This document shows, in pieces, positions 16,236 to 55,059 of a DNA stretch of 57,949 nt. The position numbers and the translations under genes were made by a program. The DNA is from a bacterium (GTDB lineage Bacteria > Bacteroidota > Rhodothermia > Rhodothermales > UBA10348), in assembly GCA_013204185.1 (NCBI GenBank), contig JABMOI010000189.1:1-57949 (forward strand), given 5' to 3'. The notes below the pieces were generated by a model. The model was not told where the DNA came from, did no database searches, and saw only the letters and a program-made list of their open reading frames with translations. Position 1 is the stretch's first letter; each line of letters opens with the position of its first letter.

Positions 16236-16236
16236 G

Positions 16237-16266: not shown

Positions 16267-16305
16267 CAATTCCTGATTTGTTCAACATAATAAACCAACG
16301 TGATA

Positions 16306-16815: not shown

Positions 16816-16840
16816 TAAACGTTTTGATGGCGCTAGCCTA

Positions 16841-24000: not shown

Positions 24001-25142
24001 ACGCCAGATGTAACGCGAAGTATGACCAACATGGCCAGCATGAGGAAAAGAGCTGAAATGCCCATATCCCCGATCGTTCGAAAAGCCCCAAAGCCAAAAA
24101 CGGAGCCAAGATGCTGGGGATCGAAAAGCGGCGCAAGTGGTGATTTACCTTGCTGCCATCTCGAAGGAATATCTAGCCATAATAGAGTCCACCTCACAGC
24201 GACTAGGTAAACTAAGTACCCGCCCAGCCTTGATAGTGTCACTGAATCCTTTTCTAGGCCTTCGCTTCCCATCCTGAGCTCGGATTGTGTCCACAACTGC
24301 CTCGTAACGCTCAGGGTTATCCAAAGCAGAAGCATGAAGACCCAGAAGGCCTGAACGTCTTGGTATCGCCTTTCTCGCTCTATTTTGACTGATTCAAGGG
24401 ATGGAAGCTGAATCGACACCTTGCCAACGACTCCGCCCAGGGTTCCGCGAACCGCTCGCTCATTTTTCGCGATAAACCCTACGTCTTCGCCAAATTGAAA
24501 CGAGGTACTCGTTTTAAGCCGCTTGGTCCATTCTTCGGACCACGAGTAGTCTCTGAGATAGTCGTTCTTTAGCGGCATAAACGACTCTACAATCACCCCC
24601 ATGCGCACAACGCCAATCGCCTTGCTGCCATCAGAAATTGGATGCCAAACCACAAAAGCCGTTCGCTTGGCTCCATCTTTGGCAACTGTTTCGATAGACG
24701 TTGCTAGAAAATCTGGATGACTAACACCTGCATCCATGGGGAATACGGGCCCTTTCCAGGCCAACAGCGCGGGCGAGTAGTCATAAATCTCAACGAAATA
24801 CCGATCGGGCAAGGACCAGCTATTGGTCGCGCGGACGAGTTGATCGTACGAAGGCTGTGTGTCGAGTTGGGAGCGAAACCCACTTCTGATAGCAGGTGAA
24901 GTCGCCATGCGCTCTGCTTCTTCATGCAGAGCCGTAAATGTTTGCCTTACGCTGGTTTCAATTTGCGAAAACGCATCTCCGCGCCAAGATAGTAACTGCG
25001 TTTCTCCAGACGTTCCGAGTCTAGATACATCCCATTTAGATACACCCCAGGTTGCTAGGAAAGCGACCACAAAAACGATGGCCACGATCCAGCTGGAAGC
25101 TGGACCCATCCGTAGACCCCAAGAAGGCTTCAATCTATTCAT
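21021..25142 (-). CDS. Large polytopic sensor histidine kinase (HAMP-HisKA-HATPase_c, NtrY-like H-box)
   Basis: ORF 21021..25154 has a TTG at 25154; the ATG at 25142 overlaps the DUF4783 stop. H-box AHEIKIPLTPM, HAMP (LTRPIAQLRAGL...DEIADLVDSFNTM), N/G boxes (NFLKNAIQS, DNGAGIP, GTGLGLAI). A hydrophobic block spans about residues 270-565. Confidence 0.85.
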   Translation of the reverse strand: MNRLKPSWGLRMGPASSWIVAIVFVVAFLATWGVSKWDVSRLGTSGETQLLSWRGDAFSQIETSVRQTFTALHEEAERMATSPAIRSGFRSQLDTQPSYDQLVRATNSWSLPDRYFVEIYDYSPALLAWKGPVFPMDAGVSHPDFLATSIETVAKDGAKRTAFVVWHPISDGSKAIGVVRMGVIVESFMPLKNDYLRDYSWSEEWTKRLKTSTSFQFGEDVGFIAKNERAVRGTLGGVVGKVSIQLPSLESVKIERERRYQDVQAFWVFMLLLWITLSVTRQLWTQSELRMGSEGLEKDSVTLSRLGGYLVYLVAVRWTLLWLDIPSRWQQGKSPLAPLFDPQHLGSVFGFGAFRTIGDMGISALFLMLAMLVILRVTSGVRQAVTVALHFNRNQSVRPRVVALVVGHVLVSVCISWFLFQLSSHAIQDSTLDFFARSGLLPERLILVVFGSLLVAVFSLVLLGGRALWILAHWTGTDVSLLPSQLKLAVIYAFTALLVGFLGNMLGWDTPIEVIGIVLISMIAAARMNPIQPARRSPIVALRHIVPIVMTTSLLLFPMLEISSDQKTELRMKDAALSFSEDKDSRVMFAISQVLDLAAQTEFETELDSIQLLDPSIKRIRTDSLAEESSRGLLLSALAGYNVTVTLHSTDGAVLGRYSNLIRRVPRYTRDAADLADFGLFRAMYHEFGDSGPMIEKLTGIADQNRFRYAGFLGHEPAGTSTNAEAISDPASFYLLVRAEQRALTESAGTPFPKVLSPAGYYGNRYADLSVAEFKDGVLIRTQGRSFGKTFLDESVIEQLRSSPEAWLHEEVRDRSYQTYYRNDNSLESGLSSSVIAVRRRTTNFFDQLYHLLRIVVAGMFLATPFYVGGIFWRFRKSKSLVEPRHFRDRVLNAFFSVGVVTVIAMGFVGLGVVSGENERAIESWLRQHLDRVEETLQLEARGEELPYRVLDRISIDSLSARVGLDLNIYHGIEIEQASRPELIRDRLIETRLPIEAYEALYFDGFRFITVNEKLGSFEYTAGYRALTDERGLPHYVVSIPTLPEQERIEEERARTVAYLFGALLLLVLVVMVTASLLANALTRPIAQLRAGLQSVAAGHFERIAQIDSKDEIADLVDSFNTMQDQLEESQRLIGQHERQLAWKEMARQVAHEIKIPLTPMKLSIQHLRSAFLRKSADGTDDIKFAAKFDQTTTTLTEQIDTLARIANEFSSFGRMPTHIREEVDLNAVIKEAVELMQAEDNVQITTELGPGRYIVNADREALRRVYVNFLKNAIQSVPEDRMAEIVVTSRLEREGDKTIVLSRVTDNGAGIPRNLWEKIFVPSFSTKTSGTGLGLAIARKTVENMDGDIGFDTLFEKGTTFWIKVPLVKSDV

Positions 25143-25545
25143 CCGATTCTTCAATTAGGAACTCTCGGACTTTCCACGTCCCCTCAGAAACGCGCAAACG
25201 AATGTATATCCTCAACTTCTGACGGGTAGCCTTTGTGGTGTAGACTCCCTCGATAAACCAAGCTCCGGGGGTTCTTGTTGATCCCAGTACTTTAAAATCT
25301 TGTGGTGGGTACTCCTTAAAAAAGCTTTTAAGGAGCAAGGTTGCCTGCCCGCGAGAATAGTACCTTCCCTCGCCAAATTGGGCGATTTCAACTGAGTTCA
25401 TGGTTTGCTCAGCCAAACCAACTGCATCGGCCCCCATAATGGAAGCCTTCAGTTGACTTAGAACCTGATCGCTCGATTGAGCCGAAGAGGTGCCAGTGCC
25501 CGTCAAAAAGGCGAAAAGAAAGCAAATTAAACCAAGTCTAAACAT
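25135..25545 (-). CDS. DUF4783-like secreted protein
   Basis: The ATG at 25545 gives the signal peptide MFRLGLICFLFAFLTGTGTSSAQ. The body (GRYYSRGQATLLLKSFFKEYPP...WKVREF) matches my recollection of DUF4783. Confidence 0.65.
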   Translation of the reverse strand: MFRLGLICFLFAFLTGTGTSSAQSSDQVLSQLKASIMGADAVGLAEQTMNSVEIAQFGEGRYYSRGQATLLLKSFFKEYPPQDFKVLGSTRTPGAWFIEGVYTTKATRQKLRIYIRLRVSEGTWKVREFLIEESDE

Positions 25546-28129: not shown

Positions 28130-29122
28130 TTATCCGGACACTTCGCTGTGGTCACCGATATTCAACGTGCCTTTGAACGACTTTACCACTGCGTTTTTCC
28201 CAACCATCGAATAGTCGAGGTCACTGCCAGTGATCGAGGCGTTGCCAAAGACAACTGAATTTTTGAGGGTGGAGTTTTTGACTTTTGCGCCTGCTTCAAT
28301 GGACACGTGCGGCCCTATTGTACCCCCTTCAAGCACCACATCTGGGCCTAAAAAGACCGGAGGTACTATGTTCACTCCCTCCCGCGAGGCCGTATGGTTT
28401 TCGTGATCCAAAATGAAGTGTGTAGTTTCTGAGAGAGCTTTGATTGTACCGCAATCCAACCAATGGGTCACATTGGCTGTTTTGAAAACTTTGTCTTCTT
28501 TCAATAGCCTATCAAACGCATCCGTTAGTTGATATTCGTTTCCAACGCCAGTGACTTTATTGTCGAACAAGTACTGAATCGCATTTCGAAGCACGGCCAA
28601 GTCCTTCACATAATAAATCCCAATGAGCGCTTCAGTCGAAATAAGCACCTGCGGTTTCTCAACCAATTTCACGATGCGATCGCCTTCTCTCACGGCCACG
28701 CCATAAGCGCTCGGATCGTCTACATGTTTGACCCAAGCCACAACATCTGCTTCTGTCAGATCGACTCCTGGGTTCATGTAAAACAAGGTGTCGGCAAATA
28801 CAACAATGCCTTCCCCTTCCAATTCATCGCCGGCGCACGCAACGGCGTGCGCCGTTCCAAGAGCGACATCCTGAACTGCAAAATGAGCATTAGCACCGTG
28901 CTTTGCGCAAATGTTAGTCAGTGACTCGCGAACCTCTGGTCCAAAATCAGGACCAAGAACGAAGACACCGTCTGTGATTGGCCGAGGTAATACAGAGGAA
29001 AACATATCCACGATTCGTTCGACCATGCTTTTGCCGCAAACAGGTAGCAATGGTTTCGGTGTTACGTGGGAGTGAGGTCTGACGCGCGTTCCGCGGCCTG
29101 CCATTGGAATTATAAGCTTCAT
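28130..29122 (-). CDS. Sugar-phosphate nucleotidyltransferase with C-terminal left-handed beta-helix
   Basis: N-terminal IPMAGRGTRVRPHSHVTPKPLLPV (GxGTRxxPxxxxxPK) and hexapeptide-like C-terminal repeats. Confidence 0.8.
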   Translation of the reverse strand: MKLIIPMAGRGTRVRPHSHVTPKPLLPVCGKSMVERIVDMFSSVLPRPITDGVFVLGPDFGPEVRESLTNICAKHGANAHFAVQDVALGTAHAVACAGDELEGEGIVVFADTLFYMNPGVDLTEADVVAWVKHVDDPSAYGVAVREGDRIVKLVEKPQVLISTEALIGIYYVKDLAVLRNAIQYLFDNKVTGVGNEYQLTDAFDRLLKEDKVFKTANVTHWLDCGTIKALSETTHFILDHENHTASREGVNIVPPVFLGPDVVLEGGTIGPHVSIEAGAKVKNSTLKNSVVFGNASITGSDLDYSMVGKNAVVKSFKGTLNIGDHSEVSG

Positions 29123-29165: not shown

Positions 29166-30845
29166 TTACTTAACTTGGTTGGTCTTAGACGGTTCGCCAG
29201 CTACCGAATGAGGTAGTCCAGTTTGGTACTCGGTAATCTCCCCATCAACGTTATAGATGTGAGGTACTCGCGGAATGTAAGCGTCCGATGAAATCAAATG
29301 ACTGTTTCTTTCCGTGACAGACCACCCAAGCATTTCAGCCAAGAGGTACGATGCATCTTCGATCGAGTACAAATCATCCTTATGTCTTTTAATGCGGTTT
29401 ACTCGCGTCGAGTCTGCATACGTGGTGTCGTACCAAACGAGAAACGGAACGTCTACTTGGACCTTAGAAAGCTGCGGAAATCCATGGGCTCCTCCGGCTA
29501 CTTCTTCTCCGTGATCGGAAAAATAAACGAGGGCCGCTGATCTTGAATCGCCTTCTGCGGCTTCAAATACGCTTCGAAACATTCGGTCTGTGTGATAAAT
29601 GGTGGCATCATAATCAGGCGAAACCGAATTCAGCGCAATCATGGCTTGCTTGTCACTCTCTTCAGACCGTTTTGAATACTTGTAGTGACTCCCAATCATG
29701 TGAAGCACCACGAACAATTTCCCTTCTGGACGCTGCTCAAGTAGTTCGGCGAATCGCCGTCCCAACTCAACATCCATTTTGTCCCCCCCGACCTCATGAG
29801 AGATAAAGGCGTGTTCGTTGGAGAGATGTGCGATGGCTCCCACGACCGTATCAAAGGCGCCTACAGGAGCTTGATTGGAGATCCAAGCAGTATAGTAGCC
29901 GGCGTTGTTAGCCATGTCTACGACGTTCCATAGCTCTTTGTAGGGCGCAACGTCTTCTACCGTAGCAAAGGTAAGAGCCCTTTTCAAAGATTCCCGAGTC
30001 AAAGGCGACGGGGAAACGGCGTTTGTAAACGCTACGAAATTTGGATCCTCTGCGGCTAACCGATCCAAAAACGGAGTCGTTTTGGTGCCGTATCCATACA
30101 AGGAATAATGATGTCTTGTTGAGCTCTCCCCGATCACAAGGACCACCAGGTCCGTCGCTAATAAGGTAGAATCTGCCACCAGGAAATCTGGTTGGGTGGT
30201 CGCAATTAGCTCCGCAAAACCAGCTTTTTCATGGTAATACGAGGCAGTTAAAAGCCCCTCTCCGATAACCGGCACCCCTTTGTAGACACGAGAAACGGTG
30301 GTAACCGGATTCGTAACCATATCAAAACGAACTCCTTTGCTCGAGAGTGCGACGCCCATCGGGATCGCTGCCAAACCCAGCCAAATGATAGCGGCCCATT
30401 TCACAGAAACCTGCCCCCGGTTGAGTCTGTACAGCAAAAAGGCAACGACAAGGGCAAACAATGGAACCACAATTAGCGACGTGGTCGGAATCAGATGGAA
30501 AAACTCAGAGGCCTCTCTCGAATCGGTTTCAAACAGGGAATAGAACCCTCCCATTGAAATGCGCGATCCAAATAGATCGTAATGGGTCCGATTAATCAGG
30601 AAGGTTGCTGTATAGACTGCAACCATGATGGCTTTTGTTATAGGACCTGCAAACGAGAGCAGTAACAGCACGGTCGCCGCTCCAAAAAGGACGCGAAAAC
30701 TGATGTGAACCCACTCGCCTAGCGACCATTCCACGCTATTTACACCGAAATAGCTAATTGCACTGATCAGCAGGGCGGTCACCACGGCCTCCAGCGTCAA
30801 GCGCTCCTGAACCCAAGAAAACCACTGCAAAATAAATTTCTGCAT
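29166..30845 (-). CDS. Phosphoethanolamine transferase-like (sulfatase family) membrane protein
   Basis: ATG at 30845; the longer ORF to 31001 would overlap the divergent LOG gene. N-terminal TM bundle plus sulfatase-type motifs VLVIGESSTRHHYSLYGY, HMIGSHYKY and YFSDHGE. Confidence 0.75.
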   Translation of the reverse strand: MQKFILQWFSWVQERLTLEAVVTALLISAISYFGVNSVEWSLGEWVHISFRVLFGAATVLLLLSFAGPITKAIMVAVYTATFLINRTHYDLFGSRISMGGFYSLFETDSREASEFFHLIPTTSLIVVPLFALVVAFLLYRLNRGQVSVKWAAIIWLGLAAIPMGVALSSKGVRFDMVTNPVTTVSRVYKGVPVIGEGLLTASYYHEKAGFAELIATTQPDFLVADSTLLATDLVVLVIGESSTRHHYSLYGYGTKTTPFLDRLAAEDPNFVAFTNAVSPSPLTRESLKRALTFATVEDVAPYKELWNVVDMANNAGYYTAWISNQAPVGAFDTVVGAIAHLSNEHAFISHEVGGDKMDVELGRRFAELLEQRPEGKLFVVLHMIGSHYKYSKRSEESDKQAMIALNSVSPDYDATIYHTDRMFRSVFEAAEGDSRSAALVYFSDHGEEVAGGAHGFPQLSKVQVDVPFLVWYDTTYADSTRVNRIKRHKDDLYSIEDASYLLAEMLGWSVTERNSHLISSDAYIPRVPHIYNVDGEITEYQTGLPHSVAGEPSKTNQVK

Positions 30846-30979
30846 TATACCCGAAACCAATCTTCCTATGAGAATGAGAATTGGGTGTGCCTTACGCTGC
30901 TGTTCAATCTTTGGTTCACCTGCTTGCCACCTAGTATATTCTACTTCTTCAAAAAATAACGACTTAAACCGCCACGAAC

Positions 30980-31687
30980 ATGCGTCACAATCCAATTCCA
31001 TTGTCCTCCACGAACGGCTACGATGCCTGGCAAGATGCCCGGATTAAGGACCTGTGGCGAGTATTCCGCATTATGGGTGAGTTTGTAGAAGGCTTTGAGA
31101 CCCTTTCAGAAGTTGGTCCCGCCGTTTCAATTTTTGGATCGGCTCGCACAAAACCAGACCACCCGGACTATGAATTGGGCTGCCAAGTGGCCAAAGCCTT
31201 GGTTGAAAAAGGCTTTGGGGTGATCAGCGGCGGCGGGCCTGGCATCATGGAAGCAGCAAACAAAGGAGCCAAGGAGTCGGGAGGCATTTCAGTCGGTCTC
31301 AATATTAATATCCCTCATGAACAGTCTTCCAATCCATACATCGATTCGGACCGACTCGTAAATTTTGAGTTCTTTTTTGTGAGGAAGGTCATGTTTGTCA
31401 AATATGCGCAGGGATTTGTAGTCCTTCCTGGTGGGTTTGGAACAATGGATGAGCTATTTGAAGCGCTGACTTTGATTCAAACAAACAAGTCGGCTCGATT
31501 TCCTGTCGTGCTTATGGGAATCGATTTTTGGTCTGGCCTTATTGATTGGCTCAAGAACACAATGGCTGTTCGAGGAAACATTCACCCAGACGACCTTAAT
31601 TTGTTCTACCTTACAGACGATGCGCAAGACGCGGCGGATCACATTGCCAAGTTTCATGAGGAGCAGGCCATGACACCAAATTTTTAA
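30980..31687 (+). CDS. LOG family (TIGR00730) protein
   Basis: Motifs GGGPGIMEAANKGA and PGGFGTMDELFEALTLIQT. Confidence 0.85.
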   Translation: MRHNPIPLSSTNGYDAWQDARIKDLWRVFRIMGEFVEGFETLSEVGPAVSIFGSARTKPDHPDYELGCQVAKALVEKGFGVISGGGPGIMEAANKGAKESGGISVGLNINIPHEQSSNPYIDSDRLVNFEFFFVRKVMFVKYAQGFVVLPGGFGTMDELFEALTLIQTNKSARFPVVLMGIDFWSGLIDWLKNTMAVRGNIHPDDLNLFYLTDDAQDAADHIAKFHEEQAMTPNF

Positions 31688-32813: not shown

Positions 32814-32948
32814 ATGGCCTTGCCTCGTTCAAATAGGTGATGACGTTCTAGTGAAACTGGATTCGAGCCGCGCTTACTAGTGCCACTTGTTTTGGTTAAA
32901 TTCCTATCATTGAGCGCCCTGTTATATACATACCTGCAACAGAAAACC

Positions 32949-33692
32949 ATGCCTTCTATTCATCCTAACGTTGTCGTCGATCCAACCTGCGTCCTTGGTC
33001 ATCATGTGGTGATTGAGGACAACGTTGAGATTGGTCAGGACTGCATAATTGGCCATTTTGTAGTCCTGAGATCAGGCACGAAGCTGGGAAATCATGTCCA
33101 AATTGGTGACCATTCCGTGCTAGGGCAGCAGCCCAAGCGGGCTGCCAACTCAGCCGTTACGAACGACACTAAGAAAACGGGGCCGCATGTTAGCGACCGT
33201 GTTCGAATTGGCTCCCACTCCATTATTTACGCGGGGTGTACCCTTAACGAGGATGTATTCGTAGCTGACCTTGCAACCATTCGTGAAGACGTACAGGTGG
33301 GACAAAAGACCATTGTGGGGCGCGGTGTTGCGATTGAAAACCAGTGCTCCATTGGCTCCTTTTGCAAACTGGAAACGAACGCCTACATCACGGCTTATTC
33401 GACCATCGAGGATAGAGTGTTCGTGGCACCTGGTGTGCTCACCAGCAATGACAACTTCATTGGTCGCACAGAAGAACGTTTTAAACACTTTAAAGGGGCC
33501 ATTCTACGGGAAGGGTCTCGCGTTGGCGTGGGCGCCGTCATTCTTCCAGGAGTCGAACTTCCTGCCGAGGCCGTGCTGGCTGCCGCGGCAGTCTTAACCA
33601 AAAAAGGCGAGCCTGGCATGGTTTATAAAGGTCTTCCAGCAAAGCCGGCAGGCCCTGTACCTACTGAACAACTCCTGTCAAATAATAAGTAA
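32949..33692 (+). CDS. Left-handed beta-helix (hexapeptide) sugar N-acetyltransferase-like protein
   Basis: ATG at 32949. Repeated [LIV]-G-x4 hexapeptides throughout (VVIEDNVEIGQDCIIGHFVVL...). Paired with a DegT-type aminotransferase 15 nt downstream. Confidence 0.75.
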   Translation: MPSIHPNVVVDPTCVLGHHVVIEDNVEIGQDCIIGHFVVLRSGTKLGNHVQIGDHSVLGQQPKRAANSAVTNDTKKTGPHVSDRVRIGSHSIIYAGCTLNEDVFVADLATIREDVQVGQKTIVGRGVAIENQCSIGSFCKLETNAYITAYSTIEDRVFVAPGVLTSNDNFIGRTEERFKHFKGAILREGSRVGVGAVILPGVELPAEAVLAAAAVLTKKGEPGMVYKGLPAKPAGPVPTEQLLSNNK

Positions 33693-33707: not shown

Positions 33708-34838
33708 ATGAACATTCAAATGGTGGATTTGCATTCGCAATACCTCGATATCAAACATGAAATTGATACCGCGCTCCAAGAAGTGTTAAACACCACGGCC
33801 TTTATTCGGGGACCCGAAGTGAGCGCTTTTGAAGCGGAGCTGTCTCACTATTTGGATGGATCGAGTGTATTGGGCGTGGCCAACGGAACGGACGCGCTTC
33901 AGATTGCGCTCATGGCGTTACATATTGGCCCCGGCGACGAAGTGATCTCGCCCTCCTTCACGTTCGTAGCAACAGCAGAAGCGGTGGGCTTGCTGGGAGC
34001 AACGCCTGTATTCGCGGATGTGCTACCCGACACTTTCAACATGGACCCGGCCCAGCTTGAAGCGCTTATCACGCCTAGAACCAAAGCAATTGTACCGGTT
34101 CATTTGTTCGGTCAATGCGCCAATATGACTGAAATTAAGGCCATCGCGGATAAACACGGACTGCCTATTGTTGAGGATACGGCGCAAGCAATTGGATCTA
34201 CGTGGCAAGGTCAGGCTGCAGGGACAATAGGAGATATTGGGACTTTGTCCTTTTTCCCCTCAAAAAATCTGGGGTGTTATGGAGACGGCGGGGCTATTGT
34301 AAGCCGCCGTCCAGAGCTCTTTGAGCAATGCAGACTCATTTCCAATCATGGTTCTCGAAAAAAATATCACAACGAAGTGGTTGGGGTAAATTCCAGATTG
34401 GATTCCATGCAAGCAGCCATTCTGCGTGTCAAGCTAAGCCATTTGGATTCATACACGGAGGCCCGAGTTCTGGCAGCCAATCGGTATGACGCGCTTTTCA
34501 GCGATTCGAGCGATCTTGTAACGCCCTTCAGAGACCCGCGCGGTAGCCACGTATTTCATCAATACACGCTGCGAGTAAAGGGGAACGACCCAGAAAAACG
34601 GGACGCACTTCAAGCATACTTGGCGACTAAGGGGATTCCTTCTTTTGTTTATTATCCCGTTCCGCTTCACCTCTTGCCTATTTACAAAGACAATCCAGAC
34701 TCGTGCATTTGCGGCCCGCTTTCCAACACGTTGTGCGCGGCCAATGAGGTGCTATCCCTTCCCATTCATACGCACCTAACCCAATCCGAACAAGAGTTTA
34801 TTGCGGGGCACTGCAACGCCTTCTTTAGTAGCCTTTAG
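33708..34838 (+). CDS. DegT/DnrJ/EryC1/StrS family sugar aminotransferase
   Basis: 376 aa. FIRGPEVSAFEAELSHYL, PVHLFGQ, and SFFPSKNLGCYGDGGA containing the PLP lysine. Confidence 0.9.
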   Translation: MNIQMVDLHSQYLDIKHEIDTALQEVLNTTAFIRGPEVSAFEAELSHYLDGSSVLGVANGTDALQIALMALHIGPGDEVISPSFTFVATAEAVGLLGATPVFADVLPDTFNMDPAQLEALITPRTKAIVPVHLFGQCANMTEIKAIADKHGLPIVEDTAQAIGSTWQGQAAGTIGDIGTLSFFPSKNLGCYGDGGAIVSRRPELFEQCRLISNHGSRKKYHNEVVGVNSRLDSMQAAILRVKLSHLDSYTEARVLAANRYDALFSDSSDLVTPFRDPRGSHVFHQYTLRVKGNDPEKRDALQAYLATKGIPSFVYYPVPLHLLPIYKDNPDSCICGPLSNTLCAANEVLSLPIHTHLTQSEQEFIAGHCNAFFSSL

Positions 34839-34843
34839 ACCAT

Positions 34844-37828
34844 CTATTCAGAAGCCGTGGTCCGAAGCATCTCTTCGACTGTGGTGACACCCATTTTAAC
34901 TAGTTCACGAGCTGAATCTTGTAGCGTCAGCATGCCATCCTTGACGGCTTGCTCGCGGATTTGATCTTCGTCAATAGCTTCGGCGCTTTCGGCAATCATG
35001 GCTCTGATTTCACGGGTGAAATAGAGTGTTTCGCAGACCGCGCGGCGACCTTTATATCCGTTGCCATTACATTTCGGGCATTTAGAGCCGCGATTTGCTT
35101 TGTACACCGTGGTTTCTTCGATCTCTTTCTCTGTAAAACCGAGCGAACGCATCAAGACCAAGTCAGGATCAGTATCTTCAACTTTACAGCTAGAGCACAC
35201 TTCTCGGATAAGGCGCTGAGCAACGACCAGGTTGATAGCATAAGCAATCAAGAATGGCTCAACACCCATTTTGTACAGGCGGCTAACAGCAGCAGGTGCA
35301 TCGTTTGTATGAAGTGTTGAGAACGTAAGGTGACCCGTGTTCGCCAGTTTAATGGCAAGCTCAGCAGTGTGCTTGTCACGCATCTCCCCAACCATAACAA
35401 TGTCGGGGTCATGACGCAAAATAGCCCTTAGAGCACCTTCTAGGTCCAACTTGTGACTGAGCTTAATCTGCCGAACACCTTTAATGATGTACTCAACAGG
35501 ATCCTCAACCGTCAACACGTTTACTTCCGGCGTAACAACCTGGTAGAGAGCTGCAACAAGCGTCGTACTCTTACCTGAACCCGTTGGACCTGTCAGAATG
35601 ATCATCCCGTGAGGCTGGCGAATCGCTTTGTTGAACCGCTCCATGGCTACATCCAACATCCCTAATTTGGTGATGTCAGTAAGCACTTTACGGTCATCGA
35701 GAATACGAATAACGATACTCTCAGCTCTCATTTCCTGATTTGCAGAAGCAATCGGAAGAATGGAGACCCTGAATCGAATCAGAGCACCATCAATTTGGCG
35801 CTGAATAAACCCGTCCTGCGCAGCGTCGCGTTCAAAACGGTCTACGTTCGTTGAATTATCCTTAACAACAGCTAAGAATGCTTCCGGATGAACCTTGTCT
35901 TCCGTGTGCCATTTTTTCAGGCGACCGTCCGTACGAAGATGGATCTCAACCTGCTTATTAGCATTCGGATAAATATGAATGTCTGACGTTCCTTGTCGTA
36001 CCGCTTCAACAAGTGATGCTTCAAACAGGTTAATGAGCTTCGAGCGGCTAATTTCAGCTTCGAGTGCATCTTCGTCAAGCGACTCCTCACCCGAGTCGTA
36101 GGACATGCCCAAGTCAAAGGCTTGGGTTTCCTCTGAAATCCGTTCCATGTACTCATTTTTCCGTGGAAAAATGGTATCCAAAAGTCGCAGTATTTGCGAT
36201 TCAGAAGCATATCTGAGCTCAAAACGGCCCAAATCTAGCTCATGGACTAATTTATTTACTTCAGGACGAGTAGGGTCAGGCGTAATAAAGATGATGCGCC
36301 CTGTTCCTGTCTCAAAGTCGATCGAATGCTCAAATGGCACCAACAACATCTCGATCATCTCGTCGCGATGTTCGTCTGCCAAGGTCTCCATGGTGAGCCG
36401 GACAAAGTCGTGATCAGGTCGAAACTCGTCTACTTCTTCCAATTTAAAGGCGTAAACACGAGCTGCAGCTTTATAAACTGATTCCCTTTCGACGCCTTTT
36501 AAATCAGCGATAATGCGCCATAATGCAATTTTTCCGCCTTCAGCATCAAATAGCTTTAGGCCCTGGGCAGCTTGCTCATCCGTTACAATTCCATCTGCCA
36601 AGAGGGTCCGAACAACTCGGTCTTTGTGTAGCCTCTCGCCAAGTTCGCTGAGCTTAGCAGGTGTCAGGGGTGCTGCTGGCACTGCTTCCAATGCATCCTG
36701 AAGCGGGTCTGCGTGCTCGCTCAATTCAAAATCGATATGGGCGTTTTCAGAAGGCTCAATGCTATCAACACTGTATCCGCGCTTAACCAGAGAGATGGTT
36801 ACGTCGTGCAATGGCCCACTAACAATCGTTTTGGGGCTATAACGGCACTCTAGCGGATTAGGGCAAGAAAGGATAGCAGATTGAACTCTTGAATCGAGCG
36901 GGTCAGAAGACAATACAATGACAGTGTATCGTCTGTCGGACATAGATAGATCAAGACTAATCGGGACGAGCCCTGCTGAAACCAATCGGGCTAGGTCTTC
37001 GCCGCCAATCACTTTCAGGATGTCGTCTAAAAAGGCTTCTGTTGGAGATTCGTCCAAATGTGGCTGAAAAGCATAGCCTTGATGCTGAGCAACGGACGCT
37101 TCAATTTGAATGGTATCCGTATCCGGATGCATACTTAGAACTCGCCATAAGTCTAGTCCCTCTTGGCGATTTCTAATTGCATCAAAAACCTGAGACATGG
37201 TAACCACGCCCATCTGAAGCAAAGACAGAACGATTTCATCCTTGACTACACCAGATACAGGAGAATTAACCTCAGCGATTGGTGAACTTGGACTGACCGG
37301 AGTGAACGACTCTTCATCAAGGTCAGTCAGGGCATCTTCATCCTCGATTGGAGCAAATTCACTTTCCGTCTCTGCTGCAAAGTCCAAATAGGAGTTCAGG
37401 CTTTCTTCTAAAGCGTGATCTCGGTTAAGCTCTTCGATTGCGCTTTCTGAGGCCGTAAGCGAATCAGCTTCCTTTTCGTTCGAATTAGGTTCGGTTGGCG
37501 CATCTAAATCGAAGACAACGCCTTCACTTAGTGCTTCATCAAGCAATTCATCGTCAGATCCGGGCAGATCCGAAGCCAACGCCTGGGAGGATCCTACTCC
37601 GTAAATTTCATCAAGCGTGAATGTGTTTTTATCAGTCCCGTTGGTCACACCGCCTTCCAAACTGCGAAGTGCTTCGGTCATCTCGTCAAGAGACATCGCA
37701 CTCAGTTCAGAGATCGCCTGCTTAACTAAGCGGGCTTCTTCTTTTGATTCACGACCGCGCACTGGCTCTCGATCCTCGGATCGAGTGCCAGATTTTAGTC
37801 GCGATATGTCGAATAGTCGTTTGGACAT
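34844..37828 (-). CDS. PilB/GspE-family type IV filament assembly ATPase with about 400-aa N-terminal extension
   Basis: 994 aa. Walker A GPTGSGKST, Asp box VLTVEDPVEY, Walker B DPDIVMVGEMRD, His box TGHLTFSTLHTNDA, tetracysteine CSSC...CPKC. The ATG lies 19 nt after the PilC-like stop. Confidence 0.9.
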   Translation of the reverse strand: MSKRLFDISRLKSGTRSEDREPVRGRESKEEARLVKQAISELSAMSLDEMTEALRSLEGGVTNGTDKNTFTLDEIYGVGSSQALASDLPGSDDELLDEALSEGVVFDLDAPTEPNSNEKEADSLTASESAIEELNRDHALEESLNSYLDFAAETESEFAPIEDEDALTDLDEESFTPVSPSSPIAEVNSPVSGVVKDEIVLSLLQMGVVTMSQVFDAIRNRQEGLDLWRVLSMHPDTDTIQIEASVAQHQGYAFQPHLDESPTEAFLDDILKVIGGEDLARLVSAGLVPISLDLSMSDRRYTVIVLSSDPLDSRVQSAILSCPNPLECRYSPKTIVSGPLHDVTISLVKRGYSVDSIEPSENAHIDFELSEHADPLQDALEAVPAAPLTPAKLSELGERLHKDRVVRTLLADGIVTDEQAAQGLKLFDAEGGKIALWRIIADLKGVERESVYKAAARVYAFKLEEVDEFRPDHDFVRLTMETLADEHRDEMIEMLLVPFEHSIDFETGTGRIIFITPDPTRPEVNKLVHELDLGRFELRYASESQILRLLDTIFPRKNEYMERISEETQAFDLGMSYDSGEESLDEDALEAEISRSKLINLFEASLVEAVRQGTSDIHIYPNANKQVEIHLRTDGRLKKWHTEDKVHPEAFLAVVKDNSTNVDRFERDAAQDGFIQRQIDGALIRFRVSILPIASANQEMRAESIVIRILDDRKVLTDITKLGMLDVAMERFNKAIRQPHGMIILTGPTGSGKSTTLVAALYQVVTPEVNVLTVEDPVEYIIKGVRQIKLSHKLDLEGALRAILRHDPDIVMVGEMRDKHTAELAIKLANTGHLTFSTLHTNDAPAAVSRLYKMGVEPFLIAYAINLVVAQRLIREVCSSCKVEDTDPDLVLMRSLGFTEKEIEETTVYKANRGSKCPKCNGNGYKGRRAVCETLYFTREIRAMIAESAEAIDEDQIREQAVKDGMLTLQDSARELVKMGVTTVEEMLRTTASE

Positions 37829-37847
37829 GGTGTGATAAGAATATCTC

Positions 37848-39200
37848 TTACTTCATAAAATCGGTCGCAGATGGAGAAACCATAGCGAGTTCGGAAGAAA
37901 GAATGGTTAAACCCATAATTGCGAGCGTAATTATCAAGGCCACAACCGTCTGAATGACTTCAATAACGGATTTTAGCTTTAGCGACGTTTCGTTTTCGTA
38001 GTAGTCTGCCATTTGGCGGGCACTGTTTCGCACATTTCCTGTTTCAGAACCACTTCTAAATCGCGCTAACGCCATCGAAGTGAATGCACCCGATGCTTCC
38101 ATAGCTTTGACTAGGTCGGCGCCTTGAGCCACCATCATGGGGATGGTGACGGTTTTTACTCGGTGCTCGATGTACCGATTTCCACTGGCTTCCGCAGCAA
38201 TCTTAATCACGGAAATGTTTTCTCCACTTCCAGAATAGAGCACGGCAAACACACGGCAGAAAATCTCAATATTTAGCTTGTGTAGAAGTCCACCAATAAT
38301 GGGAAGTCTAATCATGAATCGGTGTGTGAGAAAAACGCCTCTATTTGACCTCAAAAAGGCCATCACACCGCCAATAATTGAACCCGAGACCAGCAAAACA
38401 TAAAACCAGTTGTGATCCATCCACTTCGAAAAATCGAGCGTGCTTTGCGTCATAGGTGGAAGTTCCAAACCGAAATTTTCAAACAAACCAGCTGTTTGAG
38501 GGAATATGTACCAAATGTAGAAGACAAAGGCAGCCGACAACACCAACAAGGTGATAACCGGCGTAATCATAGCGCTTTTAATACTTTTCTTGAACTCGTT
38601 TTGGCGCTCTAAGAACCTGGCCGTTGCTTCGTATATCTCGGACATATTCCCTGTCTGAGAAGCAATACCTAGCATGTAGGCCGTAAACTTGCCCAGCATA
38701 TGTTGCTGCTTCATAAAGGCTTGTTGAGCTTCCATACCGCCTTTTAGGTCGGCGTTCAGATCTCGGATAACCTGTTTCAAGCTTTTGGAAGACACATCGT
38801 TAACGAGCAAATTCAGTACTTCGTCAAACGGCAGCTTTTCCTTGAGAAGGTTTGCAGAAAGCCGTACAAACATGATTAGGTCAGTCTGAGGCGGTTTTCT
38901 CTGAATATCAAATAGTACCTTCTGAATCTTGATGACTTCAAGACCCATTTTTGATAAAGCTGTCCGTAGTTCGTCTTCTGAAAATGCCTTTTGGCCGCCT
39001 TGGATTACCTTCCCGTTAAAGTGGCGAACTTTGTAGAGGTACGTGGAGCGCTGTTCAATACTTTCGGTACGGAAAGAATGCCGTTCCGCCAAGTCGCCAA
39101 CTCTTTTTTTGGCGGCCTGAGCGCTAGGAGCAAACACAGTCCCCTGGACGGGCTGTCCGACCTGGCTAATTCCGTTAAATCTAAATTCTTTAACTGCCAT
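37848..39200 (-). CDS. PilC/GspF-family (T2SS-F) platform protein
   Basis: 450 aa. Two T2SSF-like halves, each with cytoplasmic helices followed by TM segments. The N-terminus resembles the PilC N-terminal motif and appears twice. Confidence 0.88.
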   Translation of the reverse strand: MAVKEFRFNGISQVGQPVQGTVFAPSAQAAKKRVGDLAERHSFRTESIEQRSTYLYKVRHFNGKVIQGGQKAFSEDELRTALSKMGLEVIKIQKVLFDIQRKPPQTDLIMFVRLSANLLKEKLPFDEVLNLLVNDVSSKSLKQVIRDLNADLKGGMEAQQAFMKQQHMLGKFTAYMLGIASQTGNMSEIYEATARFLERQNEFKKSIKSAMITPVITLLVLSAAFVFYIWYIFPQTAGLFENFGLELPPMTQSTLDFSKWMDHNWFYVLLVSGSIIGGVMAFLRSNRGVFLTHRFMIRLPIIGGLLHKLNIEIFCRVFAVLYSGSGENISVIKIAAEASGNRYIEHRVKTVTIPMMVAQGADLVKAMEASGAFTSMALARFRSGSETGNVRNSARQMADYYENETSLKLKSVIEVIQTVVALIITLAIMGLTILSSELAMVSPSATDFMK

Positions 39201-39264
39201 GACTGTATTGTCCTTGAAAACTGTGTTGTGCTTTAAATTGTGAGCTCATTTCGGCGCTTTAGTG

Positions 39265-39675
39265 CTATTCAACAACGATTTCGCTATTGAAACTGATAAT
39301 CGTTGAATCGATCGTGTAGTTCGTCAAATAGGTCCTGGCGCCGATTTCTGGATAGCGACGGCTATTCCCACTAATCACTAGATTCGTGTTTGTAGCGCTC
39401 GTAATTTCATATTTGGCGTGGTGCGTTTCCGCATCCATAAACAGCTTTCTCATGCCATTCGTCTCTAGTCCAATGTATTTAGCATTGCCGCCGCTGTAAG
39501 GATCCAGCTTCGTTTTCCAAAAAACAGCTGAAGTCGCAATTTCCAAATTCCGACTTACGATGTTTTCTGATTCTGCCTGCCTCATTTTGTTTTGGAAGGC
39601 AACTATGCCTGCGACCACCGCACTTGCGGCAATGATCACACCCATAACAAGCAGAAGTAATTGTTGCTGTCCCAT
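39265..39675 (-). CDS. Pilin-like protein B (non-canonical, starts MGQQQLLLLV)
   Basis: 136 aa. N-terminal hydrophobic helix, an amphipathic helix and a beta-rich tail. Paralogue of 39869..40315. An in-frame stop lies 11 codons upstream with no alternative start. Confidence 0.55.
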   Translation of the reverse strand: MGQQQLLLLVMGVIIAASAVVAGIVAFQNKMRQAESENIVSRNLEIATSAVFWKTKLDPYSGGNAKYIGLETNGMRKLFMDAETHHAKYEITSATNTNLVISGNSRRYPEIGARTYLTNYTIDSTIISFNSEIVVE

Positions 39676-39772
39676 CGCATTTTGAGGTCTAGTGTATCTG
39701 AGGAAAGTTTAGTCCTCCAGATAATCTGAGTATCGGCTGTGATGAAGCTTCCTTAACAAGATGAGACCGAAT

Positions 39773-39813
39773 AAAAAAAGCTCGGGGAGGCTGCGTTTGC
39801 AGCCTCCCCGAGC
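39773..39813 (-). terminator. Strong rho-independent terminator after pilin-like gene A
   Basis: Perfect 15-bp stem gctcggggaggctgc (39780..39794) with gcagcctccccgagc (39799..39813), a 4-nt loop, and T7 on the minus strand (39779..39773). It lies 56 nt past the stop at 39869. Confidence 0.85.
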
Positions 39814-39868
39814 TTAAATCCTACTTCAGTCTGTGACGTTAGGTCACATAAGAAGTATTCCTATTCGT

Positions 39869-40315
39869 CTACTGATTGATCTCAGTTGTGATATCACCAG
39901 GAGTCGTACCGGCAACGGTCAGAACTACTGTGTTCATCACGGTCGTTCCGTCTGTTCCATAGGACGTCGCGGTGATTTCAAGATCGGTGCCTGAGGCGTC
40001 CAAAACGAAAACACCGTTTAGGTTTTCGTAATCGTCGTCGCCAGCTGTGGCTGCAGTCAGAGCGGTGTCACCAACTGTGTAGCCAATCTGACCGAAGTTC
40101 AAACCAGTCCAATCTGCTGCACTAGCGCCGCCACCAAATGCACCTGGTTTTAGTTTCCATGCTTGAGCGTCGGAAGCGACACGGATTGCATCGTTAACCA
40201 GAGCGTCTGCATTAGCTTTTTTCTGGTTTTCTGAAAATGCCTGGATACCAACTACGACGGCCAAGCCGACGATAACGATACCTAGTACGAGAAGAAGTAA
40301 TTGCTGTTGACCCAT
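39869..40315 (-). CDS. Pilin-like protein A (candidate major subunit, starts MGQQQLLLLV)
   Basis: 148 aa. Hydrophobic N-terminal helix, an amphipathic stretch (ANADALVNDAIRVASDAQAWKLKP) and a Gly/Thr/Asp-rich Cys-free C-terminus. Strong SD. An in-frame stop lies 8 codons upstream. Confidence 0.6.
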   Translation of the reverse strand: MGQQQLLLLVLGIVIVGLAVVVGIQAFSENQKKANADALVNDAIRVASDAQAWKLKPGAFGGGASAADWTGLNFGQIGYTVGDTALTAATAGDDDYENLNGVFVLDASGTDLEITATSYGTDGTTVMNTVVLTVAGTTPGDITTEINQ

Positions 40316-40322: not shown

Positions 40323-40329
40323 CCTCCTT
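40323..40329 (-). promoter_or_regulatory. Shine-Dalgarno AAGGAGG for pilin-like gene A
   Basis: The minus strand reads AAGGAGG, then 7 nt, then ATG (40315). Confidence 0.6.
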
Positions 40330-40562: not shown

Positions 40563-40880
40563 ATGGTAGACAAAGAAAAAGTCCGCGTCACGATTGAAGA
40601 AATGAAAGTAAAGGGCGGCCACCTAGTAGATAAGGTGAAAGAAGTCATTGAAGAGGGTAACGCGCGTCGTCTCTTAATTAAGAAAGATCAACGTACCCTA
40701 TTGGAGATTCCGTTGTCAGTTGGAGTAGGTGGCGCCACCGCTGCTGTATTCCTCCTCCCTACGTTAGCAGCCGTTGGCGCATTGGCAGCTCTAGTCTCAG
40801 ATGTTACGATTGTAATTGAGCGAGAAGAAGCGCATGTGACCGATGTCGAAGTCGAAGAAGTGACTTCCGATAAAAAATGA
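40563..40880 (+). CDS. DUF4342-like protein
   Basis: 105 aa. GGHLVDKVKEVIEEGNARRLLIKKDQRTLLEIPLSVGVGGATAAVFLLPTLAAVGALAAL matches my recollection of DUF4342. Confidence 0.65.
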   Translation: MVDKEKVRVTIEEMKVKGGHLVDKVKEVIEEGNARRLLIKKDQRTLLEIPLSVGVGGATAAVFLLPTLAAVGALAALVSDVTIVIEREEAHVTDVEVEEVTSDKK

Positions 40881-46591: not shown

Positions 46592-47941
46592 CTACTCAAC
46601 GCGCTGAATGTTAGATTCACGTTTGATTTTGTATTGAGCACCAAAATCAGTGCCGTAAGAATACTCGGCTGAAGCGTTTAACCGGCTTTCGCTCCGGTAT
46701 GCTCTACCGTTTCCACCTTCATAGCCGTAGTAAGCGTCGTAATCGTCACTTGCTGCGCTAATTGCTTCCACGCCGTAGTCCCATAGCCATCCTTCGTCTT
46801 CAGGAAGAAGGGAAATAGGAGCAAATCCGTTGTAGTCGCGAGGGTCAAAAAGGCGGCTTCGAGAAACGCTTCTTACTGACTCTGAACGCAAGTTCAGTAC
46901 GCCAACCCGGTACCCATCGGATGCCCGATATTTAGCTAGCGCGTAGTCGTCGTAAAATTTAGTAGAGATCATTTCAAACCCGGCTCTACGATCTCCCACT
47001 AGAAATACGTCACGATCGAATGTGATCTGCCCATCGCGAAAGACAGTAGCTTCAATCTGGGATAAGTTTCTCGGGATACGATCCACTTTGCCAAGATATC
47101 TGTTGCCTTCATACAGGGCGACTTCCTCTATCTCTATGTCTAGCACAGCGTAATCGTCTGTGGCATAACGAACCTTGTGACGGTACACGGTTTCCATTTC
47201 GATGCGTGAAGATCGATTTCGTGATCCCCAATTAGATTCCACGTACACCACCTGGCGATACCGATACCTTGGAGACCAATGTCTTTCGTATCGAAGTACC
47301 CAAGGCCAAGATACATGGATTGAGATCCTAGATTGGGGACGATAAGCCCGTTTAGATCCTACATTGAGGACAAACCGCGGAGCATATCTAACAGTGCGAT
47401 TGCCATTTTTAGCACGAACAGGAATCCGCCTTGGCACGACAACGCTAGATCTGTTGCCACGAATTACGTCCTGGTTTCCTTTTCCGCCCACGCGACCTGC
47501 GTCAGTTGCACGCCGAGCGCTTGATCCGTTTGTAGATCGAGCACCAGAACCTGTGCTACGAGAGCCAGCCTGTTTGGCGTCGCGATCTACTCTGGCTCCA
47601 CCACGGCTACCAGATGCATTCTGAGAACGGGTTGAATTGGAACCCCTAGTGGCGGATTGTTCGGCATTACTTTTACGGGCGTCAGATTTCCGTGCGTCCG
47701 ACTTCCTAGCGTCAGATTTCCGGGCGTCAGCTTTTCGGGCATCTGACTTTCCAGCTGAAGTAGCTTTTCCCGCCGAACGGGCTTTTCCAGCAGAACCAGC
47801 TTTCCCGCGGTTCACCGTAACCTTCCCTTTGTCTGTTCGGGTCCGTTGCGCCATCGAATCGTGGGGCAGCGCGACAAGAGTGAAAACCGCCATCAAGATG
47901 GCGACTGAAAGTTTTCGAAGTGCAGTAGAATATTTTTTCAT
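46592..47941 (-). CDS. Secreted protein with a very basic tandem-repeat N-terminal region; unknown family
   Basis: 449 aa. Signal peptide ...LPHDSMAQ. About 180 residues rich in R/K/S/G/A, including SAGKxx x3 and ARK(S/A)D x5. The C-terminal half is Tyr/Arg/Asp-rich and unrecognised. Confidence 0.7.
   Translation of the reverse strand: MKKYSTALRKLSVAILMAVFTLVALPHDSMAQRTRTDKGKVTVNRGKAGSAGKARSAGKATSAGKSDARKADARKSDARKSDARKSDARKSNAEQSATRGSNSTRSQNASGSRGGARVDRDAKQAGSRSTGSGARSTNGSSARRATDAGRVGGKGNQDVIRGNRSSVVVPRRIPVRAKNGNRTVRYAPRFVLNVGSKRAYRPQSRISIHVSWPWVLRYERHWSPRYRYRQVVYVESNWGSRNRSSRIEMETVYRHKVRYATDDYAVLDIEIEEVALYEGNRYLGKVDRIPRNLSQIEATVFRDGQITFDRDVFLVGDRRAGFEMISTKFYDDYALAKYRASDGYRVGVLNLRSESVRSVSRSRLFDPRDYNGFAPISLLPEDEGWLWDYGVEAISAASDDYDAYYGYEGGNGRAYRSESRLNASAEYSYGTDFGAQYKIKRESNIQRVE
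47679..47807. repeat. In-frame coding tandem repeats: 15 bp x5 followed by 18 bp x3
   Basis: 15-bp units start at 47679, 47694, 47709, 47724 and 47739 (gcgtcagatttccgt-like). 18-bp units start at 47754, 47772 and 47790. They encode ARKSD-type pentapeptides and SAGKAx hexapeptides on the minus strand. Confidence 0.9.
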
Positions 47942-54184: not shown

Positions 54185-55059
54185 GCCCGCGTGCGTTTAG
54201 CTGGACCGCTTTCTTGTTCGGGGCTCTGGTGAGCGTCGTCAAGGTCTAATTTCTCGGGCACCCGCTCTTGCTCCACAGACCGATCAAAGTATTCCAAGTC
54301 CAAGCCGGCCGTTTCCGAAGCATCCTTTTCGTGATTCGCGACAATCTCTTCGTGTAGCGCCCCAGGCGCCCTCAGGCTGCCTTTCGAAACGAGATTCAGC
54401 GCAATGGAGCCGATCGCGTCCATTTGGTCGGCTCGGTCGTAGCGCCACTGGGATAGTTGAAGGCCCGTAAAGCCAATCCCTGCGATGCCTGCAACGGCAA
54501 AAAATATGGCAGGAAATAAGATGCTGAAATCCACTCCCGAAGCAAGGGCAGAACTTATAAAGATGAAAATGCCCGCCATAATCCAGCTGATACTTGCCCA
54601 CAGAAATCCTTTTGCACTTCCCTTCTCAGTCCCCATTCTGAGCCTGTGGCCATGAGGGGTTGGCTCGACGAGGATATGAAGGTTTCCGTTCGACCATTCT
54701 CTAAGCTTCCCTTCCCGTGTAATTTTCCCACGAGCACCAAAAGCCTGCCTAATTTCTACAACAAGTTTGTCCCAACTGTCGTCCGAAAGAGGTGCTTTGA
54801 GGTCGATAATGCGGTGAACTGAGGTCTGCAAACCCAAAAAACGCTTTTCGGGTGGAGCCTCTACCGTGTGCTCTAGACGAGCGGCGGCGTCTGAGATAAA
54901 CTCGGGCGAAATACCTGCCTCTCTGGCTATCAAATGCAGATCCTCGAGCGTTAACCCATCCTCCAAGGCCGATCGTTCTTTAATCCGTTCTTGTTCTTCT
55001 GATGCTTTTTTGAAAATATCAGCGATTTCTTTCTGACTATATCGACGATCAGAATCCAT
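54181..55059 (-). CDS. Hypothetical membrane protein
   Basis: 292 aa with a helical charged N-terminus, two adjacent TM helices (WASISWIMAGIFIFISSALA, LFPAIFFAVAGIAGIGFTGL) and an acidic tail. No family recognised. Confidence 0.5.
   Translation of the reverse strand: MDSDRRYSQKEIADIFKKASEEQERIKERSALEDGLTLEDLHLIAREAGISPEFISDAAARLEHTVEAPPEKRFLGLQTSVHRIIDLKAPLSDDSWDKLVVEIRQAFGARGKITREGKLREWSNGNLHILVEPTPHGHRLRMGTEKGSAKGFLWASISWIMAGIFIFISSALASGVDFSILFPAIFFAVAGIAGIGFTGLQLSQWRYDRADQMDAIGSIALNLVSKGSLRAPGALHEEIVANHEKDASETAGLDLEYFDRSVEQERVPEKLDLDDAHQSPEQESGPAKRTRA

Follow-up and report, generated by a model that had tools for sequence, protein, structure and literature searches.

Leaderless pilin-like proteins linked to a type IV pilus-like assembly core in the Rhodothermia

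The contig JABMOI010000189.1 (GenBank assembly GCA_013204185.1), from a bacterium of the Rhodothermales (UBA10348), carries a compact locus on its minus strand between positions 34844 and 40315 that encodes two small pilin-like proteins, a platform protein and an assembly ATPase. Positions 1 to 57,949 of the contig were analysed, and are termed the 58-kb window below. The locus is of interest for its pilin-like subunits, which are leaderless and belong to a large family that extends across the class Rhodothermia and has hitherto gone unannotated; the machine itself is a split-off core resembling that of the type IVa pilus (T4aP). We regard it as probable that the locus is such a T4aP-like core, with pilin-like subunits and with accessory genes at a distance. 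The system is characteristic of the Rhodothermia, i.e. of the Rhodothermales and Balneolales together.

A previous reading of the DNA (the sequence-only reading) had described five co-directional minus-strand elements as the pilin, platform and ATPase core of a type IV filament machine. All five (i.e. four genes and a terminator) are present at the positions given, and the assignment is borne out by matches to the T2SSE and T2SSF families and by the linkage of the small genes to the machine.

The small proteins begin at a hydrophobic helix

Gene A (39869..40315, minus strand) encodes the candidate major pilin of 148 aa, and gene B (39265..39675, minus strand), lying directly 5′ of the platform gene, encodes a second pilin-like protein of 136 aa. 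Translation of both opens directly at a hydrophobic helix (M1-G2-Q3-Q4-Q5-L6, continuing as MGQQQLLLL), and we refer to these leaderless proteins as the MGQQQ family. The N-terminal sequence MGQQQLLLLVLGIVIVGLAVVVGI is almost invariant in the family. In the longer form MGQQQLLLLVLGIVIVGLAVVVGI.AF it is invariant among 16 close homologues of A and mostly common to B, which has the same MGQQQLLLLV start and belongs to a distinct conserved subfamily, nearly always of 136 aa. The exact MGQQQ start is found in about 135 of the 150 best distant representatives.

In both open reading frames (ORFs) the first possible start codon following the preceding stop is the Met of MGQQQ. To compare relatives, ORFs were called and clustered in 82 related loci, 1.2 Mb in total. 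No in-frame start is possible upstream in 115 of the 123 family genes in these loci, and the remaining eight also have an ATG at the MGQQQ position, lying behind apparently spurious GC-rich extensions.

A class III signal (i.e. a short charged leader, Gly at −1, a hydrophobic residue or Phe at +1 and Glu at +5) is not present in A or B, as the sequence-only reading had proposed, and there is no Glu within the first 27 residues of the MGQQQ proteins. With Met1 taken to correspond to the +1 residue of canonical pilins, position 5 is occupied by Gln. Profile searches with the four proteins of the core gave matches to T2SSE and T2SSF for the two larger ones, while neither A nor B matched N_methyl, PF08334 or any other Pfam or NCBIfam model.

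Conservation falls along the sequence. In an alignment of 130 representatives it is 86% over residues 1–27, and 57, 32 and 29% in the successive segments that follow. This gradient is that expected of type IV pilins, and is opposite to that of a signal peptide.

We note that gene A has its own signals for expression. A Shine-Dalgarno-like sequence AAGGAGG (40323..40329, minus strand) is placed 7 nt before the ATG, and an intrinsic terminator (39768..39815, minus strand) follows the gene. The latter comprises a hairpin (39815..39778) with a 17-bp stem containing 12 GC pairs and a 4-nt loop, followed by TTTTTAT, so the strong terminator noted earlier between A and B is real. Because A has its own ribosome-binding site and terminator it is likely to be the abundant, major subunit of a fibre. 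Gene B would then probably provide a second subunit at a lower level, co-transcribed with pilC and pilB.

The MGQQQ family is large. A search of a collection of 5.8 billion proteins gave 1,858 homologues of gene A, all labelled hypothetical. Those with named hosts are from Rhodothermales, including the cultured Rhodocaloribacter litoris, in agreement with the earlier placing of the host in the Fibrobacterota-Chlorobiota-Bacteroidota (FCB) group. When 1.84 billion cluster representatives were searched with a profile, no fewer than 1,552 clusters (at 50% identity) were returned with E ≤ 0.001. With each species represented by a single genome, at least 480 loci were recorded. Among the matches listed the hosts are Rhodothermales, Salinibacteraceae, Rubricoccaceae, Rhodothermus, Balneolaceae, Gracilimonas tropica DSM 19535 and Fodinibius, together with a few other Bacteroidota and one metagenome-assembled genome (MAG) of KSB1. 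With 1,858 homologues of gene A and a gene order kept in dozens of genomes, the locus is far beyond chance. The literature searched on the type IV pili of Rhodothermus, Rhodothermaeota and Balneolaceae, on leaderless pilins and on the string MGQQQL contained nothing about the family, and neither Rhodothermus nor Salinibacter is mentioned in the supplements of Denise et al. (2019, PMC6668835).

The assembly ATPase and platform protein

The ATPase gene (34844..37828, minus strand) encodes a PilB/GspE-family protein of 994 aa. Residues 596–989 (34862..36043, minus strand) match Pfam T2SSE with E = 3.1e-98, and the motifs of the ATPase can be read in the translation, which shows a Walker A sequence (GPTGSGKST), DPDIVMVGEMRD, TGHLTFSTLHTND and CSSC...CPKC. 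The Walker A, Asp box, Walker B, His box and tetracysteine elements of the sequence-only reading are therefore all found. The protein scores 392 bits on the NCBIfam PilB model and 391 bits on GspE, neither of which reaches the equivalog cut-offs of 675 and 630 respectively; indeed all components lie under such cut-offs. The scores on TadA (52 bits) and FlaI (47 bits) are far lower than that on PilB. Residues 397–993 can be aligned with full-length Geobacter PilB structures (E ~1e-84), and alignment with the structures of Thermus PilF and Vibrio EpsE gives E ~1e-78.

The N-terminal half of the ATPase is elaborate. A PilB-type N-terminal domain at residues ~402–545 (36194..36625, minus strand) is indicated by the Geobacter PilB alignment, with a weak match to Pfam MshEN (E = 0.038). 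An internal repeat (25% identity, E = 4e-6) reveals an extra copy of this domain at residues ~196–340 (36809..37243, minus strand). Residues 1–190 (37259..37828, minus strand) form an acidic extension of low complexity, for which searches gave no match. Orthologues range from 591 to 1,199 aa in total length, so the N-terminal extension is lineage-variable. The Balneola orthologue has a weak N-terminal MshE-type motif for binding cyclic di-GMP (5.8e-7, under the cut-off).

The platform gene (37848..39200, minus strand) encodes a 450-aa inner-membrane protein of the PilC/GspF family. It matches Pfam T2SSF in two stretches with E = 1.4e-28, and scores 160 bits on the NCBIfam GspF model and 143 bits on PilC.

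Gene order in related genomes

The remainder of a pilus machine is missing from the window. A Pfam scan of every ORF of at least 130 aa found no Peptidase_A24, Secretin or PilM, PilN, PilO or PilP, and there is no gene for a retraction ATPase of the PilT family or for a minor pilin. When the accessory proteins of relatives were searched against the window by phmmer and tblastn, the sole match was the PilB-like gene itself. The sequence-only reading was thus correct that a prepilin peptidase, a secretin, alignment genes and a minor-pilin set are all lacking here.

Conservation of the gene neighbourhood was examined in the 82 related loci. MGQQQ genes are present in 79 of these. The platform gene comes after them in 56 loci and that for the ATPase in 43, and many of the shortfalls are due to contig ends. 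Beyond the core, several relatives have a much longer cluster. In R. litoris there is a single run of A, B, Wzy_C, PilC, PilB, PilT, proteins of 641 and 333 aa, and a secretin. A Rhodothermus-type genome has the order pilin, PilC, PilB (1,104 aa), four minor-pilin-like genes, PilT, proteins of 577 and 318 aa, and a secretin. The PilT of this cluster groups at ≥90% identity with proteins of R. marinus, R. bifroesti and R. profundi that are named 'type IV pilus twitching motility protein PilT' by NCBI. The Balneolales type comprises one or more pilin genes, PilC, PilB (591 aa), a cyclic nucleotide-binding protein, a PilT-family ATPase, a PilM/N-like protein of ~580 aa, PilO and a secretin.

In Balneola the PilT-family ATPase scores 313.6 bits on TIGR01420, against a cut-off of 319, and PilO matches PF04350 with 8.6e-6. 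The secretin matches PF00263 with 1e-27 and scores higher as PilQ (102 bits) than as GspD (72 bits). The ~580-aa protein matches PilN with E = 0.029 only. PilM and PilN are apparently fused in the relatives, as one divergent protein of ~580–640 aa, and PilP was not recognized in their clusters.

The accessory genes can also stand apart from the core. One MAG has a stand-alone cluster of pilT followed by genes for proteins of 606 aa (pilMN), 332 aa (pilO) and 454 aa (the size of a secretin) among unrelated genes. Where 5 kb or more is available past pilB, as in 21 loci, a PilT-like gene could be reached in 15. The closest relatives of the present locus (L002/L009, L003 and L010) show the same break, with a convergent DegT gene right after pilB. 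A 2-Mb contig of a close relative of this split type was not among the best 120 matches in a homology search for PilT.

This gene order bears on the suggestion, made from the sequence alone, that the locus might be a reduced and undescribed lineage of type IV filament. The same core is contiguous in relatives with PilT, PilM/N-like, PilO and a PilQ-type secretin, so the machine is not minimal. Nor is a self-contained module supported, since accessory genes adjoin orthologous cores or form a separate cluster in relatives. It looks minimal because a split cluster is being viewed through a 58-kb window. The other option then offered, i.e. a core reliant on distant genes, is the better fit, judging from the clusters of the relatives. 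As these have the accessory genes beside the core or as a separate cluster, those of the host genome must lie outside the window, and the split arrangement (with pilT, pilMN, pilO and the secretin as a separate cluster) would be expected there. The earlier account had set against itself an ordinary system, in which the ATPase and platform protein fall among well-described proteins, canonical pilins and PilQ are encoded elsewhere, and the small proteins are not linked to the machine. Half of that description applies: the ATPase and platform are of a PilB/PilC, T4aP-like kind and PilQ is present in relatives. The other half does not, in that no canonical pilin came to light and linkage between the small proteins and the machine is tight.

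Many Rhodothermales have sets of minor-pilin-like genes between pilB and pilT, for example at 15287-18293 and 18925-20135 of L016, 6155-9152 of L013 and 6190-9863 of L085. Three or four such genes are present in the Rhodothermus-type cluster and at other Rhodothermales loci, and none in the R. litoris and Balneola clusters described above. Their products of ~180, 210 and 360–635 aa have an N-terminal hydrophobic helix and no Pfam or NCBIfam match. Like A and B they are leaderless, opening at the hydrophobic segment (MPQTLLAL..., MQLILDKL..., MGKALLL... and MGQSLFALL...). The first two genes of the set are duplicated in L016. These are probably the minor-pilin or tip set.

The slot directly after the major MGQQQ gene can hold one of three kinds of polytopic membrane enzyme. 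It is occupied by a Wzy_C/O-antigen-ligase-like gene in eight loci of both gene orders (L001/L088, L025, L038, L051, L056, L059, L062 and L078), by a sulfatase/phosphoethanolamine-transferase-like gene in five (L021, L028, L030, L032 and L052) and by an HTTM gene in three (L036 and two others). The variable slot looks like a site for alternative accessory genes that modify the subunit, and recalls the pilin O-glycosylases TfpO and PglL and the phospho-form transferase PptA. Placement of likely modifying enzymes after the pilin gene suggests that the C-terminal domain of the subunit faces the periplasm.

Two further features of the relatives are noted. In the Balneolales a 167-aa cyclic nucleotide-binding protein (PF00027, 1.8e-11) is encoded between pilB and pilT, at 14027-14527 of L068 and in 11 other loci, which hints at control of extension versus retraction by cyclic nucleotides. 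In addition, there are solitary MGQQQ genes, single or paired, within 10 kb of which neither the platform nor the ATPase is encoded (L019, L030, L046, L049, L050, L065, L067, L072 and L079). Some genomes have several loci of this solitary type, e.g. OZ245886.1 (L057 and L079). The solitary genes may be spare or alternative subunits.

On this basis a working scheme can be drawn. The N-terminal helix would anchor the subunit in the inner membrane, the C-terminal domain lying on the periplasmic side, and the subunit would be extracted and polymerized by PilC and a hexamer of PilB. The fibre might then exit through a PilQ-type secretin that is aligned by the PilM/N/O-like proteins, and be retracted by the PilT-family ATPase.

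Predicted fold of the subunits

AlphaFold2 models of A and B have mean predicted local distance difference test (pLDDT) values of 85 and 84 respectively. Each is of the lollipop type, with a single continuous helix (residues 4–55 in A and 2–55 in B, i.e. 52–54 residues in length) and a four-stranded sheet. The models thus suggest a pilin-like architecture for both proteins, as distinct from a demonstrated pilin fold. The claim is one of architecture only, because comparison of both models with the PDB using Foldseek gave nothing at E ≤ 0.001.

That result is the first of a number of points that weigh against the reading of the locus as a pilus core built around these subunits. The best Foldseek match to A has E = 1.2, with the Pseudomonas aeruginosa K122-4 pilin at 2.6. 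For B the top match is Neisseria meningitidis PilV at E = 0.14, followed by Thermus PilA4 at 0.26; none of these is significant. The profile of the family found no pilin among solved structures, the best match being ficolin with E = 1.7. Alignment of the family with five Escherichia coli pilins and pseudopilins by hhalign was weak, with a probability of 15% over 31 columns of the hydrophobic helix, in a register that fits neither M1 as Phe+1 nor G2 as Gly−1 and that was not used to fix the register. The charges flanking the helix are weak, and the orientation with the N-terminus inside and C-terminus outside is assumed from the context of periplasmic modifying enzymes. The filament is a prediction from genes, and the accessory genes are seen in relatives only, the window being without them. 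Finally, independence of a peptidase is an inference, the search for A24 enzymes having covered the window and the 1.2 Mb of neighbourhoods, and cleavage after Gly2 by an A24-type enzyme is compatible with the data.

Processing of the subunits

No prepilin peptidase is linked, within 10 kb, to any of the 82 loci. In the 1.2 Mb of sequence there is no ORF with the A24 motif GxGDxK[LFMIV], no phmmer match to E. coli GspO, and no canonical prepilin of the G↓FTLIE type.

These proteins could well assemble with no prepilin-peptidase step, although we would stop just short of calling this probable. The argument is that nothing precedes the mature N-terminus, so that there is nothing to be cleaved. 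The loss of Glu5 (Gln here) would fit an N-terminus with no charge to neutralize. Speculatively, such an uncharged N-terminus could arise by retention of formyl-Met, or as pyroglutamate upon removal of Met-Gly. A broader proposal, which we advance a little more tentatively again, is that Rhodothermia (including Rhodothermus, Rhodocaloribacter, Salinibacteraceae, Rubricoccaceae, Balneola and Gracilimonas) build a retractile type IV pilus from leaderless major and minor pilins, with translation beginning at the +1 residue, Gln in place of Glu5, and neither prepilin peptidase nor N-methylation. This would be the first lineage of type IV filament to do without the class III signal and A24 cleavage by which the superfamily is now defined.

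The principal alternative is an ordinary T4aP, mechanistically canonical, in which an unlinked PilD cuts divergent prepilins after Gly2, so that the leader is simply MG. Gly2 is invariant, and Gly−1 is the key determinant for A24 peptidases. Three rare members of the family (P0129, P0130 and P0218) moreover have N-terminal extensions, which resemble relics of a canonical leader, and pilD is often unlinked from the pilin genes (PMC6668835). In the extended members, however, the Met is replaced by Leu (twice) or Phe (once), and the Leu cases may be TTG or CTG starts over-extended by gene callers. In the register of an MG leader the residue at +5 would be Leu in place of Glu. The lack of any A24 gene within 10 kb also counts against it, as do the starts of the minor-pilin-like proteins (MPQT..., MQLIL... 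and MGK...), which share no position for Gly. To our knowledge a two-residue uncharged leader lies outside anything described for class III signals. Taken together, we consider cleavage after Gly2 unlikely, while holding it to be the strongest competitor of the leaderless reading.

Secretion and other functions

An alternative function would be secretion resembling that of type II systems (T2SS), in which the small proteins, instead of building a surface pilus, act as a short pseudopilus in the periplasm that drives substrates through the secretin, along the lines suggested for Cytophaga hutchinsonii. The near-equal scores of the ATPase on the GspE and PilB models and the slightly better score of the platform protein on GspF leave room for this. 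In addition, the Bacteroidetes 'T2SS' branches inside the T4aP (PMC6668835) and functions in secretion (PMC5553014). Other evidence points away from it. The clusters of the relatives include a PilT-family retraction ATPase, named PilT by NCBI, together with PilO and a secretin that scores better as PilQ than as GspD. By contrast, E. coli GspC, GspL and GspM had no match in the window or in the 82 loci, and GspG gave only E = 0.008, on the hydrophobic helix. The subunits lack the PF08334 pseudopilin domain, and the present cluster has neither the canonical GspG nor the A24 peptidase that are found in that of Cytophaga. The strong ribosome-binding site and separate terminator of gene A also suggest a very abundant structural subunit. 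We therefore think a dedicated secretion system improbable.

That the small proteins are not filament subunits at all, and instead either bear a signal peptide removed by signal peptidase I (after ...GIQA) and reside in the periplasm, or are accessories anchored in the membrane that travel with pilC and pilB, would accord with the lack of significant sequence or fold matches to pilins and with an Ala-x-Ala-like site (I-Q-A↓F) past the hydrophobic stretch, but this is very improbable given that the first 27 residues are the most conserved (with ~30% in the C-terminal half) where signal peptides show the opposite, that there is no positively charged n-region, that the hydrophobic stretch of ~21 residues is modelled as the start of the continuous long helix, and that the position in the cluster, the multiplicity and the downstream modifying-enzyme genes all match those of pilin genes. 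The signal-peptidase-I interpretation of the N-terminus was rejected on account of the conservation gradient.

Other genes in the window

The core is flanked by genes for a DegT aminotransferase, a DUF4342 protein and a PALP enzyme, as had been stated from the sequence. The DUF4342 gene (40563-40880, plus strand) is divergent from gene A, and was considered as a component of the system. It is upstream and divergent in 44 loci, but neither the Balneolales loci inspected nor L085, of the Rhodothermus type, have it. Its linkage therefore probably reflects synteny within a lineage rather than function.

A number of genes for sugar-nucleotide metabolism or envelope modification lie near the core. 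A hexapeptide acetyltransferase (32880-33692, plus strand) adjoins the DegT aminotransferase (33708-34838, plus strand), and the position of this pair is retained in the close relatives L002, L003 and L010. The pair could feed glycosylation of the pilin, or may merely be genes for lipopolysaccharide. Further off are an NTP-transferase (28130-29122, minus strand) and a 611-aa membrane protein of the sulfatase family (29166-31001, minus strand), the latter having only 22% identity to the sulfatase-family genes that follow pilin genes at other loci.

Elsewhere in the window, a 449-aa protein (46592-47941, minus strand) has a signal-like N-terminus and a repeat rich in Lys, Ala, Gly and Ser (GKAGSAGKARSAGKATSAGKS), with no Pfam match. 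It is conserved in about ten related loci, adjoining hrcA-grpE-dnaJ. A very large sensor histidine kinase of 1,377 aa (21021-25154, minus strand) has its HAMP, HisKA and HATPase_c domains only within the C-terminal 300 residues, the N-terminal 1,080 residues being without Pfam match. ORFs of 156–621 aa that match no Pfam family at E ≤ 0.001 are located at 54181-55059, 55930-57795, 2678-3349 and 12588-13058 (all minus strand) and at 16300-16815 (plus strand).

Significance and comparison with known systems

A class III signal and a dedicated aspartyl peptidase are regarded as the unifying signature of pili, T2SS pseudopili, competence pili and archaella, and tools for genome-wide detection rely on recognizing a pilin of class III type. 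A leaderless family tied to an otherwise complete PilB/C/T/MNO/Q machine would, if true, explain why the genomes of this group seem to contain pil genes yet 'no pilA and no pilD', and would give annotation resources a new pilin family. It would also provide a natural test of the roles of leader cleavage, N-methylation and Glu5 in membrane extraction and in the packing of the filament. Cultures exist of both Rhodothermus marinus and Rhodocaloribacter litoris, which makes the question directly testable. Should an A24 peptidase cut after Gly2, the finding would be reduced to one of a pilin family that is divergent and whose leader is the shortest known. The generic type IV filament model of Denise et al. 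requires a detectable pilin (PMC6668835), and would therefore probably miss the MGQQQ loci.

The closest overall resemblance is to the T4aP of diderm bacteria such as Pseudomonas, Myxococcus, Geobacter and Thermus. In common with these are the PilB-type ATPase and PilC-type platform of the present locus, the PilT-family ATPase, PilO, PilM/N-like protein and PilQ-type secretin of its relatives, and a major subunit gene with its own terminator. The O-antigen-ligase-like gene that follows the pilin gene in some genomes is placed as tfpO is in P. aeruginosa, and the duplicated N-terminal domain of the ATPase recalls Thermus PilF with its repeated N-terminal domains. The present subunits differ from those of the T4aP in having no leader, no Gly−1/Phe+1/Glu+5, no N_methyl motif and no match to a pilin model, and the loci differ in having no linked prepilin peptidase, with PilM and PilN apparently fused and PilP not recognized.

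Within the FCB group the nearest described system is the 'T2SS' of C. hutchinsonii, CHU_3191-3201 (PMC5553014), a system that falls within the T4aP according to Denise et al. (PMC6668835). It shares a secretin, ATPase, platform and PilM/N/O-like proteins, and sequences that are similarly divergent and poorly annotated. The Cytophaga cluster includes a recognizable GspG-type pseudopilin (PF08334) and an A24 peptidase, and PilT is not reported for it (PMC5553014). By contrast, the present and related loci have neither a recognizable pilin nor a linked peptidase, and the relatives have PilT. In the Ignavibacteriae, pil genes were reported in the genome paper of Melioribacter roseus (PMC3534657). 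An annotator would face the same pattern in the Rhodothermia, although M. roseus belongs to a different phylum-level lineage.

There are also parallels with the archaea. The type IV pilins and archaellins of archaea have short leaders, do not require Glu5 and are frequently glycosylated. Unlike the MGQQQ proteins, they retain a charged leader, which PibD or FlaK removes. Archaeal and Tad/Flp systems are moreover powered by FlaI- or TadA-like ATPases, whereas the ATPase of the present locus scores best, at 392 bits, on the PilB model.

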